From Octopus sinensis (Eukaryota), in NCBI RefSeq assembly GCF_006345805.1, contig NC_043009.1, positions 51,274,001 through 51,338,000 on the forward strand: a stretch of DNA of 64,000 nucleotides, read 5' to 3'. The notes beneath the pieces are model-generated. The model saw only the letters and a list, made by a program, of their open reading frames with translations, ran no database searches and was not told the DNA's origin. Every line of letters starts with the position of its first letter. Positions within the stretch are counted from its first letter, which is position 1. Both the position numbers and the translations under genes were made by a program. Positions 9,056 through 62,230 of the stretch are shown here, piece by piece.

Positions 9056-10306
9056 CGTGTGTGTGCGTGTGTGTATGCGTATGTGTATGCTTGTATGTCG
9101 GTATGGTGGGACAGAAGGCTTAAAGAACGCCTAACACAGAACTCCATACTCGTAAACATGTACTCTCGCTATGTTGATGATATCAACATAGTAGTAAAGG
9201 CACCCCCACAAGAGAGTACTGTTGATATAGTAATAGAAACTAATACTATGGAGGGCATCCAGCAAATAGCTAACTCCATCTACCAGAGTATTAAGGTCAC
9301 AATAGACTACCCAACTAAACACCCCAACCATAGACTACCAGTACTAGACACAGAACTCTGGCTAGAAACTGTGAATAATAAAACCCAAATCCTTCATTCG
9401 TACTATGCCAAACCTATGGCCTCAAAATACTTGATCCACCGGAACTCAGCCATTGCGGACAATGCCAAATTCAATATCTTGATGGTAGACCTCGTCAGAA
9501 TAATGAGAAATGTGTCACGCATGTGCGAGCCTACAGAGTTAAAGAGACACATACAATATTTCATTCACCGCATGCAGTTGTCAGGTTACAGCCATAAAGA
9601 AAGGATCAGAGTATACAAAGGAGTCATGAAGAAATTTGATAATATATTATGTAATGATAGGAATGGGATTTGCCCACTTTATAGGAACAAGTCATGGAAC
9701 ACTATAGAAAGGACAAAAAAGAAAATAGGGAAGGCCAACTCTTGGTATGATAGCCATAAATACCAGAGTGTCATGTTCGTTGACACCACCCCTGGAGGTG
9801 ACCTGGCGTACCGCTTTAGAAGGACCCTAGACAAATTTAAGCTAAGGATTAAGGTTGTTGAAAAGCCAGGCAACCCTATCAAATCTATAATCAGTAGAAC
9901 CTACCCTTTTAGTAGAACCCCCTGTACGGATAAGTACTGTACTGTATGTAGATTTATCCCACAAACAAACTGTAAAGCCAGAAATGTTATCTATAGTATA
10001 AGATGTATAGAAGGACGATGCAGTAACAAGACAACGACATACGTAGGGGAAACGGCAAGAAGCTTTGGAGAGCGGGTAAATGACCATTGGAGAGGACTTA
10101 AGGAAGGTAAAAGCTCATCGATTCTGTACCAACACGCCGAACAGGAACACAGGGGATCAATCAACAACATAGAAATTAAAATATTGTCCACGCATAGAAC
10201 AGATGCAACAATCAGACAAATTACAGAAGCTACACACATAATAGAAGATAAACCTAGCCTGAATAGGAAACTGGAATGGAACACTAGCACACACCACAAC
10301 ATATGA
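9023..10306 (+). mobile_element. Penelope-like retroelement ORF, 5'-truncated: C-terminal reverse transcriptase plus GIY-YIG endonuclease
   Basis: YSRYVDD catalytic motif, LPVLDTEL thumb region, Cys linker CTDKYCTVC, VIYSIRC...YVGETAR...ERVNDH GIY-YIG, terminal KPSLN; element sequence starts ~9100 directly after a (TG)n tract, so the listed N-terminus is microsatellite. Confidence 0.92.
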
Positions 10307-17599: not shown

Positions 17600-19260
17600 T
17601 CACAAAACCACAATGAGGTAAGGTTTACATTTAGAGGAGCAGTGTTTTGCTAGCGTGCCTTCATGCTTGCATTTAGTTGGTCCCAGTCTTGGAGTCGATT
17701 TTCCTCAAATTTTTTAAAGAAGGAGAAGTAGGACTGGCGCCTGGTCCTGCGTTCTGATGTTTTGTTTTCCGATGAAGAAAAGGGAATGTTGATTGTTTCA
17801 GATTGTCTTTTAGTTTGTCCTTGAAGCGCCAGAGTAGCCTTCCAACTGACCTTCTGTTGGGAATTGGCCAAAGAGAGGTTCTGATATCACTCATACGTGA
17901 TAGATGGCTTCACCATCTAAGCTGTATTTTTGATGAAGATGGCTTCAATACCTGATATGCTGCATTTTGTAAGTACCCCACTGATATGAATATGGTCACT
18001 TGGTTTCATGTTGGAGATAGTGTGCAAATATTGCATATGAAAAGCGTCAAACTGATTGATGTGCTTTCGGTATAAAATCCGAGATTCAGCACCATAAAGC
18101 AATGTTGTCAAGACCACCGATTTATATACATTAATCTGCACCTTCAGCGATACATCGTGGCTGATTCATAGCCTGTAATAATGCTTAAGGAAGGCGGAGG
18201 TAGCCTTCCCGATTCTGGACTTGATTTCTTTATCCATCTTTCCATCATTGGACTCAATGGAGCCAAGATACCTGAAGGAGGAAATAGTTTTCAATGCTTT
18301 CCCATCAACATATACAGTAGGGGCAACAGCGGAAAGATAGACTCAAATGGGTTGATGAACAAGCTAATTTTTGTTGATGCTGATGGTCAGACCAACGGCC
18401 TTCGATGCATGCGAGAATTTGTTTAGAATCCATTGCATGTCCTCAAGAGATCGTGTGCTACAAGTGCACAATCGTCTGAGAAGAGCAAATCTTGAACTGT
18501 TTGCACCAAAAATCTTAGATTTTGCTTTGAAGCGCTGTTGGTTGAACGAGCAACCACCAGTTCTGCACTCAAACATTTACTCCTTAAACACCCCCCGAAT
18601 GCTGTTTCCAACATAACGGAGAAATAGAAAGTAAATAAGTGGTGCAAGAACACAGAATTGTTTTGTCCCATTTGAGACGGTAAACAGAAACCATCATAAT
18701 TTGATGGAAAGAAATTATGACACTGAGAATCATTCCTGGAACGCTTAGTTTTCTAAGGACAATCCAAAGAGCATCCCTAGATAAGCTATCGAAAGCGTTA
18801 GATCTACATAAGTGACAAAAAGGTCTCAGTTGTGCTCAAGAGTCACCTGCAGCAGCCTTAGGCTAAAGATCATATCCGCTGTGCCTCTACCAACCCGACA
18901 TCTACACTGATGTTCAGGCAATTCTAAGCTGGGAAGGGCATCATTTAGTCTATTTAAGATAACCCTTCCAAGGATCTTTACAGCAACACACAAAAGGGAG
19001 ATACATCTATGGTTGTCACATTCACATTTGTTACCTTTATTCTTATGACAGTAGACAACAGAAGCGTCTTTGAACTGATCCTGATGAGTTCACATAACTT
19101 GTTCCCCAGTAGACTTCGACCACATTTATATATCTCAGCTGGTATGCCATAATTCCCAGACGAGTTTCCATTCGTGAGTTGTTTCATAACGTCTTTTATC
19201 TCAGCATTTGATGAAGCAACTGACAGTTCTTCAAGGATAGGCCTATCTTGTAGGTTGATG
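17600..19260 (-). mobile_element. Decayed RTE-clade LINE reverse transcriptase region
   Basis: Fragments GIPAEIYK, LLFSDDCAL, VGLTISINK, VYKSVVLTTLLYGAES, RFKDKLKDNLK typical of RTE/BovB-like ORFs; multiple frameshifts. Confidence 0.85.
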
Positions 19261-20139
19261 ATCAAGATATATATATATATAAATGTATATACACTCACAC
19301 AATATTGTCTACATGCTTAAGGCTGTATGTGAATGTATAAAATTGTCAGACCTCTCTTTGTGCTATTGGTAACATATATCCTTGTACAACCTGTAGCATG
19401 GTCGAGCCGCCGGAGACTAAATTGGCAAAAATACCAAGATCGTTTGCTATAAAAGATGGTCCTGGTCCTACTGGGCAACTTACAGGGAAAAAAAAAACAA
19501 TACTTGACAGAAGCCGGACGTATACATTGAAGAAATTACCATATAACAACTAGGAGTCAGGAAAGCACATCACTTTTTCGACATCTGTCTTGGTGATTTC
19601 CTTTGCATTAATACATATGAAAACATACACACACACATTCTGGTTACTCGGACATGGTGACATCCCTTTTATACAAATAATTTGATGTGATTATTTTTCT
19701 TGAGTTGTGATTAATTGCTGGAGAACTAACGTCGCGATGCAATATAGCATCGCCAATCAAACACAATCATTTGGGAAATGGACATGTGATCGAAATGGAT
19801 GGTTCCTGGTGAGGTAATGCAATGCTATAGATACTTGTATTAAATAATTTCTATCATTGTTTTGTTTCAGATATCTCATTTGATAATTTTTACATTTGAT
19901 ATTTACATTTGATAGTTATATTTGAAACTGTCATATGTATGTATTATGTATGTGTGCGTGTATATAGACATGTAGAAACAGGTGTGAGCGTTTGTCTACA
20001 TACATGTATATATGCATCTCTACATCTCTTTGTACCTGACTCACAGTCCCCGGGCTCTAACTCTGTCTCTCTATTCCTCACTACATATATGTGTGCGTGT
20101 GTGTAAGTTTATAGGAATGTATGCATATATATATATATA

Positions 20140-20339
20140 TATTTTTTTAATAATTTTGATATATATTTAAAATAATATAATTTAATTAATCTTATGTATT
20201 GGCTTGAGTTTTTCATTGTATGATTTGCCTAATAGTGGTTTTATCTCTAATTTAATATAATATAATATTTTACTATAAATTTGGATTCAATCCTAAATCT
20301 GATTTTTCCCTGTAAGTTTGGATTTATTCCCTAATATTT

Positions 20340-20345
<6 letters not shown>
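20140..20345 (+). mobile_element. Truncated copy of the (TA)n-inserted element at 32314-32535
   Basis: Near identity: aatcttatgtattggctt...ttggattcaatcctaaatctgatttttccctgtaagtttggatttattccctaata. Confidence 0.85.
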
Positions 20346-24931: not shown

Positions 24932-26373
24932 CCTTAAATCCTTTAAAATGTTTTAGCCCGAAGGCCACGGCCATGCTGGGGCACCACCGCTGAATGAGCT
25001 ACACTAATATGCGAATCCACCTCTGATACGTGGCACTTGGTCAACAAGGGAGTTCAATGCCGCTGCCCGCATCTGTGTCTCCTGTCCGACAAAAAGAGAT
25101 CCAGTTTAGTTTTAAAGAAACCCACATCCACACCATGCAAGTCTCTCAGGCATTTAGGGAGGATGTTAAAGAGCTGTGGTCCTCTGAAACCCAAGCTGCT
25201 GCAGTATCTGGTCCTGTATTTTGATGGTGATGCTGGAATCTTTGACACCATGCAGTGGCGCCCCGTTCTGCGGTTGGGGTAACTTTGAATGCCAAAGTTT
25301 GGGACAAGACCCTCCAGGATTTTACGGATGTATATCACCGCATATCTCTCCCGCCTTCGCTATAGGGAGAAGAGTTTTAATACTTTCAGACTTTCCCAGT
25401 AGCTGATATGTTGCATTGAGACGATATTCTTTGTGTAGCTTCTTTGAATTGCTTCGAGTTCTGCTGTTAGTTTTATATTGTGTGGTGACCATAGTTTGGA
25501 GCAGTAGTCCAAGCGGCTGAGGACGAAAGTTTTCCACAGGACCATCCATCAATGTCTCCTCTCTTGTTCTGAAAGTTCGGAGAATCCATCTAGCTAGCCA
25601 TCTGCATTTTATCACCAGATTAGTAATATGCACTTGGAAAGATGCATCATTGCTCATGTCAATGCCCAGGTCACGCACTGATTTTGACTCAGGGATTGCA
25701 ATTCTTCCCGGGCAGTGTATCCAGTCTGCATGTCGTTTACCTTTGTGTGCCGGTAGCGCAGGGCCTGGAACTTACCTGTGCTAAACTGCATGTTGTTGTC
25801 CTCAGCCCACATGTATATTGTATCCAATTCCTGTTGCAGATGTGCAATATTTCCAGGGTTTTGTATTGTGTGGAAGACTTTTGTGTCATCTGCATAGCTA
25901 GCAAGGGTGGCCATCTTAGCAACTGAGGGCATGTCTGAAAGGGCCACTATGAACAGCAGTGGCCTCAAGACAGTGCCCTATGGAATACCGCTTGTTATTT
26001 GTGTTTCCTTGGAGGTGGCTCCATTGGTCACAACTGCCTGCCTTCTATCTTTTAGGAAGTTGTGCAGCCACTCTCCAAGTTTTCCGCCTATGCCGAGACC
26101 ACGCAGTTCGTGGTCGACTTTATCAAAGGCCTTTGCAAAGTCGAGATATATCACATCCACATTTGAGCCATTTAGTAGCTGTTTTAATACCCAGTCATAG
26201 TGTTGCAGGAGCTGTGTTAGGCAGCCTCTACCTGGTCGAAATCCATGCTGGGTGTCAGTCAGCAAGTCATTTTCTTCAAGGAACATGATTAGTTTCTTGC
26301 GGACTATTCGTTCCATGACTTTGCTGATATGTGAGGTCAGATAGATAGGCCTATAATTTTTAGCATCTGCTCT
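24930..26373 (-). mobile_element. CR1-group LINE, 5'-truncated, frameshifted RT
   Basis: QHGFRPGR, YLDFAKAFDKVDH, YADDTK, RDLG, RLDYCSKLWSPH, LEAIQR motifs across ORFs 25978-26316, 25654-25968, 25360-25545. Confidence 0.92.
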
Positions 26374-28485: not shown

Positions 28486-28543
28486 ATATATATCTATATA
28501 TATATATTATATATATACACAATATATATAAATATATACATAC

Positions 28544-31500
28544 TCAAAGAGTGTGCCGCCAAAGATCAAAGCCGGTGCCGATTCAAACGGAACCAAACCG
28601 AACCAAACCGGTTCAAACCGGATCAATCCGGTTCAAAACTGATCATATCGGTTCAAACAAGATCAGAACGGTTCGAAGCGGATCAAACCAATTAAAACCG
28701 GTTCAAACCGGTTCAAACGTGATCAGACCGGATCAAACCGGATCAAGCCTGATCAAACCGGTTCAAATGTCAGGAATGTCCGGAATGTCAGAAACCTCAG
28801 GAATGACAGGATATCTGGAATGTCAGGAATGACTGGAATGTCAGGAATGACTGGAATGTCAGGAATGTCTGGAATGTCAGGAATGTCAGGAATATCAGGA
28901 ATGTCTGGAATGTCAGGAATGTCTGGAATGTCAGGAATGTCTGGAATGTCTGGAATGTCAGCGATCTCTGTCAGCACACTCTTTGATCTCAGTCGACAAG
29001 GATCAAAAACGGTGCCGACAGAGATCAAAGAGTGTGCCGACAGAGATCAAAGACGGTTGCCGACGAACCGGTTGAAACCGGATCAAACAGGCTGAGACCG
29101 GATCAAACCGGTCCAAACCAGATCAAACCGGTTCAAACCTGATCAAACCGGTTCAAACAGGATCAAACCGTATCAGACCGGTTCAAACTGGATCAAGCCT
29201 GATCAAACCGGTTCAAATGTCAGGAATGTCAGGTATGTCTGAAATGTCTAGAATGTCAGGAATGTCTGGAATGTCAGGAATGTCTGGAATGTCAGGAATG
29301 TCTGGAATGTCTGGAATGTCAGGAATGTCGGGAATGTCTGGAATGTCAGGAATGGCAGGAATGTCTGGAATGTCAGGAATGTTTGGAATGTCAGGAATGT
29401 CTGGAATATCAGGAATGTTTGAAATATGAGGAATATCAGAGATCAAAGACGATGCCGACAGAGATCAAAGAGTGTGCCGACAAAGATCAAAGAGTGTGCC
29501 GACAAAGACCAAAGACGGTGCCGACAGAGATAAAAGAGTGTGTCGACAAAGATCAAAGACGGTGCCGACATAGATCAAAGACGGTGCCGACAAACCAGTT
29601 CAAACCACATCAAACCGGATCAAACCGGTTCAAACCGGTTCAGACCGGTTCAATCCGGTTCAATCCCCTTCAAACCGGTTTAAATCGGTTCAAACCGGTT
29701 CAAACCGGTCCAAATACGGTACTGACAGAGATCAAAGGCGGTGCCGACAAATATCCAAGACGGGGCCGACAGAGATCAAAGAATGTGCCGACAAATATCC
29801 AAGACGGGGCCGACAGAGATCAAGAGTGTGCCGACAAAGATCAAAAACGGTGTCGACAAAGATCAAAGAGTGTGCCGACAAAGATCAAAGACGGTGCCGA
29901 CAGAGATCAAAGAGTGTGCCGACAAAGATCAAAGACGGTGCCGACAGAGATAAAAGAGTGTGTCGACAAAGATCAAAGACGATGCCGACAGAGATAAAAG
30001 AGTGTGTCGACAAAGATCAAAGACGGTGCCGACATAGATCAAAGACGGTGCCGACAAACCAGTTCAAACCACATCAAACCGGATCAAACCGGTTCAAACC
30101 GGTTCAGACCGGTTCAATCCGGTTCAATCCCCTTCAAACCGGTTTAAATCGGTTCAAACCGGTTCAAACCGGTCCAAATACGGTACTGACAGAGATCAAA
30201 GGCGGTGCCGACAAATATCCAAGACGGGGCCGACAGAGATCAAAGAGTATGCCAACAAAGATCAAAGACGGTGCCGACAGAGATCAAAGACGGTGCCGAC
30301 AGAGATCAAAGAGTGTGCCGACAAAGATCAAAAACGGTGTCGACAAAGATCAAAGACGGTGTCGACAGAGATCAAAGAATGTGCCGACAAATATCAATGA
30401 CGGTGCCGACAGAGATCAAAGAGTGTGCCAACAAAGATCAAAGACGGTGCCGAAAAACCGGTTCAAACCGGGTCAAATCGCATCAAATCAGTTTAAACCA
30501 GGTCAAACCGGTTTAAACCGGTTCAAACCGGTTCAATGCGGTTCAAACCGGTTCAATCAGGTTCAGACCGGTTCAATCCGGTTCAAACAGGTTCAATCCG
30601 GTTCAATCCGGTTCAAACCGGTTCAATCCGGTTCAATCCGGTTCAATCCGGTTCAATCCGTTCCAAACCGGTCAAGATACGGTGCCGTCAGAGATCAAAG
30701 AATGTGCCGACAAAGATCAAAGACGGTGCCGACAGAGATCAAAGGCGGTGCCGACAGAGATCAAAGGCGGTGTCGGCAGAGATCAAAGACGGTGCCGACA
30801 GAGATCAAAGACGGTGCCGACAAAGATCAAAGGCGGTGCCGACAGAGATCAAAGACGGTGCCGACAGATATCAAAGGGTGTCCCGACAGAGATCAAAGAC
30901 GGTGCCGACAGAGATCAAAGACGGTGCCGACAAAGATCAAAGAATGTGCCGACAAAGATCAAAGACGGTGCCGACAGAGATCAAATACGGTGCCGACAGA
31001 GATCAAAGACGGTGCCGACAGAGATCAAATACGGTGCCGACAGAGATCAAAGACGGTGCCGACAGAGATCAAATACGGTGCCGACAGATATCAAAAGGTG
31101 TGCCGATAGAGATCAAAGACGGTGCCGACAGAGATCAAATACGGTGCCGACAAAGATCAAAGGCGGTGCCGACAAAGATCAAAGGCGGTGCCGACAAAGA
31201 TCAAAGGCGGTGCCGGCAGAGATCAAAGAATGTGCCGACAAAGATCAAAGACGGTGCCGACAGAGATCAAAGACGGTGCCGACCGATATCAAATACGGTG
31301 CCGACCGATATCAAAAGGTGTGCCGACAGAGATCAAAGACGGTGCCGACAGAGATCAAAGGCGGTGCCGACAGAGATCAAAGACGGTGCCGACAGAGATC
31401 AAATACGGTGCCGACAAAGATCAAATGCGGTGCCGACAGAGATCAAAGAATGTGTCGACAAAGATCAAAGTCGGTGCCGACAGAGATCAAATACGGTGCC

Positions 31501-31583
31501 GACAAAGATCAGAGGCGGTGCCGACAGAGATCAAAGACGGTGCCGACAGAGATCAAAGTCGGTGCCGACAGAGATCAAAGAGT
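28544..31583. repeat. Composite satellite of 22-bp (GGTGCCGACAGAGATCAAAGAC), 10-bp (AAACCGGTTC/AAACCGGATC) and 9-bp (GGAATGTCA/GGAATGTCT) blocks
   Basis: Approximate blocks: 22:28544-28581, 10:28582-28766, 9:28767-28960, 22:28963-29064 (first part inverted), 10:29065-29216, 9:29217-29438, 22:29439-29590, 10:29591-29712, 22:29713-30054, 10:30055-30176, 22:30177-30453, 10:30454-30672, 22:30673-31583. Confidence 0.97.
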
Positions 31584-32116: not shown

Positions 32117-32153
<37 letters not shown>

Positions 32154-32533
32154 TTAGAGACAAAACCACTATTAGGCAAATCATACAATGAAAAACTTAA
32201 GCCAATACATAAGATTATTTAATTTATATTATTTAAATATATAACAAAATTATTAAAAAAATATAATTAATATAACACTACGATCGTTTCATGGCTGTTA
32301 ATCTCTTTAAATTTAGTGTTATATTAATTATATTTTTTTAATAATTTTGTTATATATTTAAATAATATAAATTAAATAATCTTATGTATTGGCTTAAGTT
32401 TTTCATTGTATGATTTGCCTAATAGTGGTTTTGTCTCTAAATTAATATAATATAATATTTTACTATAAAATTGGATTCAATCCTAAATCTGATTTTTCCC
32501 TGTAAGTTTGGATTTATTCCCTAATATTTATTA

Positions 32534-32535: not shown

Positions 32536-32576
<41 letters not shown>

Positions 32577-32578
<2 letters not shown>

Positions 32579-33769
32579 CAGGGTGCTTATATGATAACAG
32601 ATAGCTTTATTTTTCAAAAATGCAATGAGGATAAACATTAACCCCCTTTTTTTTGATAATGTTATTCAATAAATCCAACTTCAGCTTCAACAACTGCTTC
32701 TATATGAGATTTAAATCATCTACATGCTCAAATCAAGTGGTCCAGGTTCATTTTCGACATTACACTGACTATGGCGGCTTTCAAAGAAACTTTGGTGTTA
32801 TAGGCGTGTTCATTGACCTCTCTCTTAATATCTCTCCATATGTAATAGTCCAATGGATTAAGATCTGGGGAATTAAGAAGTCAAATGTTAGGGTTTATGT
32901 GATCATGAAAATGTTCAACCATCCATTCCTTTGTTACTAGAGCCATGTGTGATAGTGCAGAGTCTTACTGAAAAACATATGGCCTTCCATTGCAGACACT
33001 GTCTATCCAGGGCTTAACAATTATTTCCGGGACCTCAATGTAGGCAGCAGAGTTAACGCTAAGGCCTTGTGGAAAGAAGTAAGGAGGCATCACATGTCTT
33101 TCATTGCTGACAACCCCTAAAACCATGACAGTTGTAGGAAATTTTGTATCTTGGAACTTCAGAAAGGTCTGCATATAACCGTCTATCACTTCTTCTGTTA
33201 ACCTTTTGATCTTGGTCGAAGTTTTTCTCGTTTGAGAACACCAAATTAAATCTTCTTCTGCTGGATCTTTCAGTTTAAGAGCCTTTTAGATCTGATGTAG
33301 TGATTTTCTTTCACTTTTTCGGACAAATTGACCTTTCCTCATCATATAAGACATATCTGATGTCTTTGTGGACAACATTTCTGACTATTCCTTCTGACAC
33401 ATGGAGATCTTTTGCAACTGACCTCATGGACATTCTTGGATTGTAATCAATGGTCTGTTGAACTTACTGGATAAATTCGTGTGTTCTGAAGATTTCAGAT
33501 TTAGAATGCGTTGATACTGGTGATAGGTTTCTCTCAGCTTCCAGCTCCTTTCAAACTTTGTAGACGAAAGATCTGGCAATTTTTAAAACTCGATATATTT
33601 CTAAATATTCACTATGCTCAGCCTTTATAACCACAATAACAGTATGCTTCTTCATTTCTTGAGAAAGCTGAGGGTTTGCCATTATTATTTTCTGAAACAA
33701 AAATTATAGAGTTAGCAGAAAATGCAGCATGACCCAAAATTTTATCTCCAATACCTTGCGCACCCTGTA
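32577..33769 (-). mobile_element. Decayed Tc1/mariner-superfamily transposon
   Basis: Ends TA-CAGGGTGC ... GCACCCTG-TA; minus-strand TKFPTTVMVLGVVS...YVFQ followed by a QDSA-like second Asp motif. Confidence 0.8.
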
Positions 33770-36121: not shown

Positions 36122-36221
36122 NNNNNNNNNNNNNNNNNNNNNNNNNNNNNNNNNNNNNNNNNNNNNNNNNNNNNNNNNNNNNNNNNNNNNNNNNNNNNNN
36201 NNNNNNNNNNNNNNNNNNNNN
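36122..36221. other. Assembly gap (100 N)
   Basis: Run of n. Confidence 0.99.
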
Positions 36222-49719: not shown

Positions 49720-50040
49720 AGTGATGTGTTTGTTTCTACTGCATGAACTAAAAGTCAGAGGGGGACGGAATAAACTACGTGCATCAACTTGCTATAAAAG
49801 CGGGTAGTAATTTTACCTTGTACTTATTCTTAGTGCAAGTTTTGAAGAGTGCTGTTTTATTTTAGTATTTATTTTTTCAAGGCTATAATGAAAGTGAAAA
49901 AGGAGCATATTAGGCATATTTTGCTTAATGTGTTCAATAAAGGCAGCAACGCCAGGAATAATGCGAGGAATACTAATGCAGTATATAGGGATCGGACGAT
50001 AAGCGTAAACCAACCTCAGCTGTGGTTCCAGAAATTGCTG
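49720..50040 (+). mobile_element. 5' fragment of mariner family seen at 56492-57759
   Basis: MKVKKEHIRHILL..FNKGSNA..ARN.NAVY.D.TISV...Q.WFQK mariner HTH. Confidence 0.8.
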
Positions 50041-51689: not shown

Positions 51690-52030
51690 GCATACATACA
51701 TACATACATACATACATACATACATACATACATACATACATACATACATGCATGCATGCATGCATGCATGCATGCATACATACATACATACATACATACA
51801 TACATACATACATACATACATTTTATGGGTGTCCCCTCGTTATCGAGTATGGCCATTGCACGAAGCTTAACTGTTACTGGTGTTGTGATCGAATGTAACT
51901 TTTTAGCCCAGCCAAAGATCTACAATGTCTTGTACAGAATTGGCAACTAAAACCTTTACCGGTAATAACCGGCTGTAGTTGTAACTGGGCTTCATGTACT
52001 TTTGCATGTCGTTCAAGCCCTCCTGCTGAA
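51690..52030 (-). mobile_element. RTE LINE 3' terminus with C2H2-like finger and (ATGT)n tail
   Basis: FSCQFCTRHCRSLAGLKSYIRSQH then short UTR and (ATGT)n. Confidence 0.7.
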
Positions 52031-52186
52031 TTACATACATACGCACATACATACATACACACTCATACATACATACATACATACATACATACATACATAC
52101 ATACATACATACATACATACATACATCATCCATCCGTCTCTCTCTCTCTCTGTATATATATATATAATATATATATATATATATGA

Positions 52187-56491: not shown

Positions 56492-57759
56492 CTATTGAGT
56501 CATCCCATAAATAATGCGGTTTTTCCATTTGTATGAGCTACAAGTCGAAGAGGGATTAACTACCTTCATAAACTTACTATAAAAGTACGTGGTAATTCTA
56601 TCTTGTCCATATTCTTTGTGCAAGTTTTGAAGAGTGCATTTCCATTAACAGCTATATTTTAAAGCTATAATGGACGTGACGAAGGGGCGTATTCGGCATA
56701 TTTTGTTTTATGAGTTGAATAAAGGTAACAATGCAACGGAAAGTGCGAGGAATATTAATGCGGTATATGGGGATCGAACAATAAGCATAAGCCAGTGTCT
56801 ACAGTGTTTCTAGAAATTCCGAGCCGGAAACTACAGTCTAGAAGACGAGTCTCATCCTGGAAGATCTGTAGAGCTCGACGAGGAAATCCTGCAAACTCTA
56901 GTGAAACAAAATCCGATCGTAACTGTTGAGGAACTACCAGAAAATATTGGATTTGGTCATTCAACCATTCATCGACACCTGCGTGCCATCGGAAAAGTCA
57001 CATTGGGTCAATGTGTTCCTCGAAAACTTTCCGAGTCTAATCGCTGGCAGAGAGTGAAATGTCTGCTCTTCTTTGCCGTCTCGTCTCACGAATGAACCTT
57101 TTTTGGATGGAATAGTGACCTGTGAAGAGAAATAGATTCTCTATAAAAATGTCAAGCGCCGAAAAGTGAGCAGTCAAAGGAGAAACACCGGCACCCCAGA
57201 CTAAAGAACTTCCTTACTCACGTAAGGTGTTGTTATCTGTTTCGTGGTATAAAAAAGATTTAGTCCATTTTGAAATTTTAAACCCCAACCAAACGATAGC
57301 AAACATTTACTGCGAGCAGCTTGAGCGGCTTAAGTCAGCGCTAGAAGAAAAATAACCATCTTTTGTTTCAAGACGAAAGGTGTTCTTCCATCAGGATAAT
57401 GCTCGGCCACATACAGCGAGGATGACATTCCAAAGGCTGGAGCAGTTTGAATAGGAAACGATGCCCCACCCACCATATTCACCGGACATTGCCTCATCTG
57501 ATTTATCTCGTAGTCTTCAAAATGATTTGGACGGAAAGAATATGAATTCTGTAGACGAGGTCAGAAGAGTATAGGAGAAGTATTTTTCGTCACAGACAAG
57601 TGAATTTTGGAAGAGGGGGTCTTGCAAGTCTATTAGATAAATGGAAGAGCATTGTAGAGAATGAAGGAGAATATATATTAGATTAAAAAATAACTGTTTA
57701 TCTTAATTTTGAAAAATATAAGTATACAAAACCGCTTTATTTATGGGATAACTCAACAT
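56492..57759 (+). mobile_element. Full-length mariner transposon with pseudogenised transposase
   Basis: TIRs ttgagtcatcccataaataatgcggtttt / aaaaccgctttatttatgggataactcaa; QCVPRKL (WVPxxL-like), IVTCEEK, HQDNARPH, HPPYSPDIA motifs with stops. Confidence 0.93.
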
Positions 57760-61630: not shown

Positions 61631-62230
61631 TATACGAGGTTTGATCGAATAAGTATCCAGACTGTTGCCGTAGTAGCGAAGCTAAAGCATGCAGAGTAAA
61701 GCCGCTTGGCACAGATTGACCTTGAACTCCGCCGTGCATGAGCTCTAAGTTTTAACGTTCTAGGTCACTTCCGCTGTGTCCAGCAGTGCTTCAAAGAAGG
61801 TGTGTAGAGTGTAATCGTTTATATTGACCATGGCAGCGAAAGTTATCGTGGTGCTACCTGCTCAGAGGCCCACGCAAGGTTGCAGAAAGTGTATGGAGAG
61901 GAGTGTATGAACTGCACTCACGTCTACGAGTGCTTCAGATGTTTCCAAGATGGCTGAAAAAGTGTCGATATTGATGAACGTTATGGGAGACCCGCAACCG
62001 GAAGAACAGATAAAATCATCACAGATGCGTGTGCAACTCTTAGGGGTATTCGTCGAATTACCATCCGTGTGTTATCAGAAGATATACAGATTAGTTACGG
62101 TTCAGTTCAATTCATTATCACTGAAGATTTGGGTATGAGACGCGTGTCTGCTAAGTTTGTGCCAAAATTGATTTCAGCTGACGAAGAAAACACTCGGGTT
62201 GCACAAAATCTCATTGTTTGTGTTGTGAAC
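61631..62230 (+). mobile_element. Decayed mariner 5' half
   Basis: TACGAGG-type start; VYGEECM, ITIRVLSED, LGMRRVSAKFVPKL fragments. Confidence 0.75.

Follow-up and report, generated by a model that had tools for sequence, protein, structure and literature searches.

A compound minisatellite of Octopus sinensis whose repeat units resemble TCF and TEAD binding sites

Organization of the locus

The 64,000-nucleotide stretch of Octopus sinensis DNA analyzed here (contig NC_043009.1, positions 51,274,001 to 51,338,000 of the forward strand; hereafter the window, whose own numbering is used throughout) contains a compound minisatellite built from three short unit types, two of which resemble binding sites for TCF and TEAD (Table 1). 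Parsing of 28541-31583 yields 79 units of type A (22 bp), 76 of type B (10 bp), 44 of type C (9 bp) and a single inverted A unit; three chimeric or misaligned A units and one spurious C unit were removed ahead of the statistics, leaving 76 A, 76 B and 43 C units. All units except one share a common orientation, and their blocks follow the order A, B, C, inverted A, A, B, C, A, B, A, B, A, B, A. The minisatellite is flanked by TA/CA microsatellites, and it is richer than its surroundings both in GC (48.5% vs. 36.0% for the window) and in CpG (observed-to-expected ratio of 1.15 vs. 0.83 for the rest).

The module at 29044-29439 repeats 28563-28960, with identity at 322 of 366 aligned bases (88%), and a 464-bp segment is likewise present twice, at 29440-29903 and 29904-30368, with 94% identity (435/464). 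Both duplications, the first of about 400 bp and the second of 464 bp, are nested, and they show the array to have grown by slippage and unequal exchange. A search of the window with the 21-nt A consensus, allowing up to three mismatches, returns 70 matches, all of them inside the array and none elsewhere in the window, and 100 shuffles return none. The inverted A unit and the units that follow it can fold into a hairpin (28964-29048; stem of ~30 bp, -61.6 kcal/mol, z -8.6), possibly the scar of a fold-back or template-switch event or else a small-RNA hairpin.

Table 1. Coordinates of the minisatellite and its blocks, followed by other features of the window (TRF, Tandem Repeats Finder)
Feature	Position	Strand	Basis and remarks
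Whole compound minisatellite	28541..31583	+	3043 bp, three unit types
First two A units	28541..28584	+	Parse; junction 28555-28571 is the core of the fly KK0 electrophoretic mobility shift assay probe (GCCGCCA then AAGATCAAAG)
B block 1, ~18 copies	28583..28767	+	TRF/parse; 10-bp unit AAACCGGTTC / AAACCGGATC
C block 1, ~21 copies	28766..28961	+	9-bp unit WGGAATGTC; chained TEAD double motifs GGAATG-NNN-GGAATG
Inverted A unit, the only one	28964..28993	-	Forms the stem with 29019-29048
A block, 3 units	29000..29065	+	TRF/parse
B block 2, ~15 copies	29066..29217	+	TRF/parse
C block 2, ~23 copies	29216..29437	+	TRF/parse
A blocks of 7, ~16 and ~13 units	29440..30456	+	Interrupted by B blocks 29591-29714 and 30055-30178
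B block 5, ~21 copies	30455..30672	+	TRF/parse; adjoins the 22-bp block
22-bp block of the initial annotation, 41 A units	30670..31583	+	TRF/parse; AGATCAAAG-ACGGT-GCCGACA-G/A
Open frame of 405 amino acids, weak GIY-YIG match, Penelope-like	9089-10303	+	Pfam
Inverted repeat, 141 bp, 97% complementary, with a further copy upstream	32140-32454 and 20128-20345		Inverted pairs
Mariner-type transposase / reverse-transcriptase fragments	32575-33735, 49879-50037, 56649-57352, 61808-61954, 18829-19089, 25657-26367		Pfam
Assembly gap, 100 N	36122-36221		
Single zinc finger between microsatellites	51877-52032	-	Pfam; Zn_SUZ12 score below cut-off

Unit A as a putative bipartite TCF site

Each A unit (~79 copies) consists of an 11-bp TCF HMG site, a 4-bp spacer and the word GCCGACA. 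In the description of TCF/Pan binding by Archbold 2014 (PMC4154663), an HMG site of 11 bp and a helper of 7 bp combine in layouts termed AK (AAGATCAAAGG-spacer-GCCGCCA) and KK0 (GCCGCCA-AAGATCAAAGG); TCF/Pan-bound DNA is most strongly enriched in AK0-6 and FF0-2, the affinity for KK0 is intermediate, and within the helper the first four bases count most. The helper of unit A stands in AK4 to the preceding HMG site and simultaneously in KK0 to the next. This pair geometry equals that of the published AK6, AK3 and KK0 probes and of the AK5 unit of the 6xHMG-Helper reporter, from which the AK4 of the array lies one spacer base apart, and it lends support to a TCF interpretation of the unit. Its GCCGACA matches the fly helper at six of seven positions and the worm helper, GCCRAnW, in full. 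Both the worm consensus and the AK5 layout of the POPHHOP reporter unit are given in reviews, which also state that most invertebrate TCFs carry a C-clamp (PMC3916239, PMC4999783). On the other hand, helper sites work in any orientation (PMC4154663), and no clear spacing rule is reported for human TCF1E peaks (PMC4267635), two observations that weigh against leaning on geometry.

The initial annotation of this DNA had dealt with the last A block, which makes up less than one third of the larger three-unit array, and had described it as some 41 consecutive 22-bp units. TRF recovers this block at 30679-31581 (period 22, 41.0 copies, 88% matches), and our separate parse places 41 A units at 30670-31571, followed by one truncated unit. 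Each unit had been said to set AGATCAAAG beside (A/G)CGGTGCCG; the two exact words occur together in 21 of the 41 units, and the remaining units do not hold both. Within the block, and on the + strand only, AGATCAAAG is found 29 times, (A/G)CGGTGCCG 31 times and AAAGGCGGT seven times. Intact WWCAAAG and GCCG stand in AK4 in 26 places and in KK0 in 27. WWCAAAG itself occurs 30 times in the block and 58 times on the + strand of the whole 3-kb array, the full optimum SCTTTGATS is found at only seven sites in the block, and GCCRANW is found there 34 times.

The proposed likeness to a bipartite TCF element is borne out by this layout, in AK4 and KK0 and more closely than had been argued, but the helper that had been stressed is not supported as the constrained site. 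The minus-strand RCCG/ACCGCC falls in the most variable spacer and gives no conservation signal when taken as core (p 0.42), the stable helper of unit A being the plus-strand GCCGAC. Nor does ACCGCC abut the HMG site, as had been stated, since its last C is the C of CTTTG and the two overlap by one base. A GCCGCCA does lie at 28555-28561, where it had been reported; it is the sole exact GCCGCCR of the whole array and lies outside the 41-unit block. Variation within the unit, placed by the initial annotation just after AAAG, peaks at unit positions 9-12, and also at 22; position 9 is itself the G of AAAG and is non-consensus in 25% of the 40 full units of the block. A Wnt response of these A units is predicted from their sequence, with no target gene in view and weak evidence of selection on the sites.

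A few A units depart from this scheme. AGATAAAAG variants combined with GTCGAC, at 29528, 29948 and 29992, have lost both activating sites, the three copies stemming from one duplication, and they fit the WGAWAW repressive HMG consensus (PMC4999783). As readings of the array, Smad-type and WGAWAW repressive sites were both dropped, their matches being poor or rare by eye.

Units C and B

Unit C (WGGAATGTC, 9 bp, 43 copies) gives rise to 29 overlapping GGAATG-NNN-GGAATG pairs, all in the same direction and with a 3-bp spacer, and no such pair is found on the + strand elsewhere in the window. Double motifs with a 3-bp spacer are bound cooperatively by TEAD and drive reporters (PMC4546604, PMC12008814), and the 9-bp period of unit C coincides with this cooperative spacing. 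These blocks had not been mentioned in the initial annotation. Nothing in the sequences of A and C indicates a shared origin (p 0.46), and hence the TCF and TEAD matches represent two separate matches in one array. Among the A units with spacer AATGT (29773-31460), the AAAGAATGT variant creates AGAATG, a TEAD-like half site, seven times in the array. AATGT is found, too, where B and C join.

Unit B (10 bp, 76 copies) contains 22 exact instances of AACCGGTT, a Grainyhead-like consensus, together with 36 matches to the CP2/LSF pattern CNRG-N5/6-CNRG, and its period fits the 10-bp repeat of the CP2 tetramer site (PMC5829564, PMC2873413). Unlike in Grainyhead and CP2 sites, the critical C and G of B are without protection. 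The sequence of B suggests that it may be a slippage derivative of A, and because SCTTTGWWS is matched at eight of nine positions in 30 places, B is possibly a weak TCF site. The Grainyhead/CP2 interpretation is thus weakened by its unprotected critical bases, its A-like sequence, this near-match and the widespread occurrence of B-like words.

Chance and constraint

Since the density of sites follows from tandem amplification, the question of chance concerns the unit sequences and not their counts. With 1e6 random units drawn per setting, WWCAAAG and GCCG in roughly the favoured layouts arise in 2.5-3.8e-4 of 22-mers, and AGATCAAAG with GCCRNCR in AK0-6 in 0 and 1 of the 1e6 draws. The TEAD double motif appears in ~4e-3 of random 9-mers and AACCGGTT in 1.1-1.5e-4 of random 10-mers, and 24-37% of the latter satisfy the CP2 pattern. 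As a local control, WWCAAAG occurs in two of the 27 other short repeats of the window, and TEAD or Grainyhead words occur in none of them.

When variants are weighted by copy, non-consensus bases amount to 3.9% in the HMG site plus GCCG of unit A and to 13.5% elsewhere (p 0.021), the corresponding values for the HMG site plus 7-bp helper being 3.9% and 17.3% (p 0.004) and those for the cores of unit C 3.5% and 20.2% (p 0.06). The helper CpG is retained in 74 of the 76 A units and the spacer CpG in 56 of them (lost in 20/76). The constraint tests were several, mutually dependent and of low power for a redundant young array, and core protection across the A units is weak.

Relatives and genomic surroundings

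Relatives of the array were sought through three word-based translated protein searches and one full HMMER search, in which the sole record containing A units was P0001, a repeat-derived predicted protein of Octopus vulgaris encoded on a 147.5-Mb sequence. P0001 was the one match among 8000 candidates scored in the first word search and the top of 120 HMMER matches, the rest of which are, by the listing, apparently collagen-like or of other low complexity; a word search of shorter proteins gave no match among 8000 candidates scored. The third word search gave 139 matches, with A-unit words in P0001 only and none with more than one C-unit word. P0001 contains A and B words and no C words, has the same A consensus, and agrees with the window translations in exact runs of 18-23 amino acids only, its block order being different. 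As it shares both the A consensus and B units, the unit consensus exists at least once more in octopuses, be it at another locus, on another allele or in another assembly. A further predicted protein, P0002, has a 56-amino-acid period and looks like a translated 168-bp satellite with about five B-like 10-mers, which means that further genomes also have arrays of AACCGG type. In the open literature, with subscription papers, repeat databases and bioRxiv supplements outside the search, we found neither this repeat nor any natural tandem array of TCF and TEAD sites described, and the repeat may already be catalogued.

The array lies among microsatellites and broken pieces of Penelope, long interspersed nuclear element (LINE) and mariner elements. 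The Pfam scan covered non-microsatellite open reading frames (ORFs) of at least 48 amino acids, omitting 13 that are mostly alternative frames over Penelope/LINE fragments, and in the 298 ORFs scanned only mobile-element domains scored above cut-off. The lone zinc finger at 51877-52032, amid microsatellites and below cut-off to Zn_SUZ12, is most likely the end of a LINE ORF and not a SUZ12 exon. Repeats resembling short interspersed nuclear elements also occur in the window and, like P0001, point to an octopus as the host.

Discussion

We regard it as an even proposition, on the strength of the unit sequences, the scarcity of amplified variants in the cores, the retained helper CpG and the O. 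vulgaris record, that the octopus array is an enhancer-like compound minisatellite whose units are shaped for TCF and TEAD binding and which would act like a multimerised reporter. Each A unit would take one TCF, with the HMG box on AGATCAAAG and a putative C-clamp on the GCCGAC at either side, TCFs thus being spaced every two helical turns along the A blocks, and the C blocks would take cooperating TEAD pairs at 9-bp spacing. In an open and unmethylated state the array would recruit beta-catenin and YAP, behaving as a strong Wnt/Hippo-responsive enhancer, with a strength scaling with copy number; without signal, it would act as a repressive TCF/TEAD sink. Judging by the conserved specificity of these factors, their binding to the units in vitro is likely. 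The array could serve a distant host gene, or else be regulatory cargo of an element, mobile or amplified, that has lost its ends. Within the enhancer interpretation, we divide our expectation about equally between a working host enhancer or enhancer-donating family, on the one side, and cargo without a present role at this locus, on the other.

The closest parallels to the array are synthetic. Like TOPflash and the HMG-Helper multimers (6xHMG-Helper/POPHHOP and the AK/KK probes), it repeats AGATCAAAG in the same direction and follows it, after a few bases, with a GCCG helper. Unlike them, it is natural and made of ~79 variant units, its helper reads GCCGACA instead of GCCGCCA and stands also in KK0 to the next site, TEAD and B blocks are intermixed with it, and no promoter is seen. 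With the bipartite Wnt-responsive elements of fly and worm (nkd, ceh-22, psa-3) the array shares HMG-helper pairs in an enriched layout and a helper that fits GCCRAnW, but it differs from them in carrying WWCAAAG 58 times on one strand within 3 kb. In one review, natural Wnt-responsive elements are said to be without dense, near-perfect arrays of TCF sites (PMC3916239). The C blocks share their 3-bp spacer with the TEAD double motif of the SV40 enhancer and of YAP1 peaks (CATTCC-NNN-CATTCC), yet they form two chained blocks of ~21-23 sites beside TCF arrays and not one pair. Repeat-borne clusters of functional transcription factor sites are already known, the heat-shock-element clusters carried by Caenorhabditis Helitrons, in which repeats supply tens to more than 100 sites for a signal-responsive factor, being a precedent (PMC6927752). 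The octopus array differs from these clusters in its factors, in having two or three kinds of site and in showing no Helitron ends, and also in that both binding and effects on genes have been shown for the Caenorhabditis clusters (PMC6927752).

Several observations weigh against the enhancer interpretation. Jointly, A and C would arise by chance at ~1e-6, a figure based on motifs picked after the sequence had been seen; roughly assuming tens to at least 100 alternative motifs per unit, it becomes ~1e-4 to 1e-2 per array, and the array is one of many screened. Given the post hoc choice of motifs, the corrected figure and the number of arrays screened, the motif match is suggestive, not decisive. 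Event-weighted mutations, placed on a haplotype network, show for A a trend in the copy-weighted direction that falls short of significance (p 0.11 and 0.12 for the partitions with GCCG and with the 7-bp helper; p 0.19-0.38 for four others), and likewise for C (p 0.13) and for the 41-unit block alone (p 0.14). The copy-weighted signal depends on a few old variants, several partitions having been tried, and within A the G of AAAG has undergone the most changes. In B, the critical C and G for Grainyhead and CP2 are the most mutated positions by events (p 1.0; copy-weighted p 0.53), and B aligns with A better than most shuffles do (p 0.03-0.06). Moreover, 36 of the other 138 matches of the third word search, many of them unrelated predicted proteins, have at least six unit words, nearly all of B type. 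Finally, the C-clamp of the octopus TCF is putative, and no host-gene domain scores above the Pfam cut-off in 298 of the 311 ORFs, a scan that small exons could escape.

Several of these points fit the chief rival, a neutral compound minisatellite, which we hold to be less probable than the enhancer interpretation but a real possibility. A single seed unit would here have been amplified by slippage and unequal exchange, with B deriving from A, or else A from a dimer of B, and C joined at the AATGT microhomology, and the motif matches would be coincidences among many repeats and many motifs; such an array may bind TCF in vitro and yet do nothing. The similarity of A and B, the chimeric junctions, the setting of microsatellites and decayed elements and the presence of WWCAAAG in two of the 27 other short repeats are all as expected from this account, as are the lack of significant core protection at the event level, the mutated G9 and the unprotected critical bases of B. 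It fares worse with the fact that two unrelated units each fit a two-part grammar with the right spacing, and with the location of the high-copy variants in spacer and junction; with ~50 redundant sites, the per-unit test is also low in power.

The units might alternatively serve another protein or structure, as subterminal transposase sites of a non-autonomous DNA transposon, displaced subrepeats of a ribosomal DNA (rDNA) intergenic spacer or an endogenous viral repeat region; what A and B would then share is WTCAAA followed by CGG, which both keep. Both rDNA spacers and transposon ends typically contain mixed short subrepeats, and the array is GC- and CpG-rich relative to the window. Within B, TCAAA has changed least (post hoc p 0.004 by events; copy-weighted p 0.13), and the 41-unit block has 40 intact copies of ATCAAA while the G that follows it varies. 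We nonetheless judge this improbable: no terminal inverted repeats bracket the array among the longest 25 of 1593 inverted pairs, no transposase attached to it was found, and the target duplication around it is of 3-4 bp only and microsatellite-like (TACA on both sides, as expected in a TA/CA tract). Helitron or Helentron ends (5' TC, 3' hairpin plus CTRR, AT or TT insertion) are matched only by B palindromes inside the array and not in its near flanks, Rfam gives no match in the window, with no rRNA there, and both the TEAD-spaced C blocks and the stable GCCGAC would be left unexplained. An artefact, be it a coding repeat or vector, reporter or microbial DNA in the assembly, seems very improbable indeed. 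Open frames of 393-511 amino acids do span the array, and an O. vulgaris protein has been predicted from a related one; all + frames are open, with one repeating word each, because the A unit has no stop in any of them, and no piece of P0001 longer than 23 amino acids matches the window translations, so a protein-coding array was rejected. Graded natural divergence and nested duplications speak against foreign DNA, and two patterns of the array found no match in GTDB genomes, nor was any found among PLSDB plasmids.

If the array is neutral, it serves as a warning that chance yields motif-perfect repeats. The most specific form of the enhancer interpretation, in which the array would be the natural counterpart of TOPflash/6xHMG-Helper and TEAD multimers, a repeat-built coincidence enhancer for Wnt and Hippo signals, tunable by copy number and belonging to an octopus family that brings this response to new genes, appears to us somewhat unlikely on present sequence evidence. 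Almost no mapped enhancers are known from cephalopods. Should the interpretation be true, slippage and unequal exchange would be capable of producing an enhancer that answers several signals and varies in strength with its copy number, and the array would provide a ready Wnt/YAP reporter for cephalopod biology and a direct test, in a mollusc, of the C-clamp grammar.
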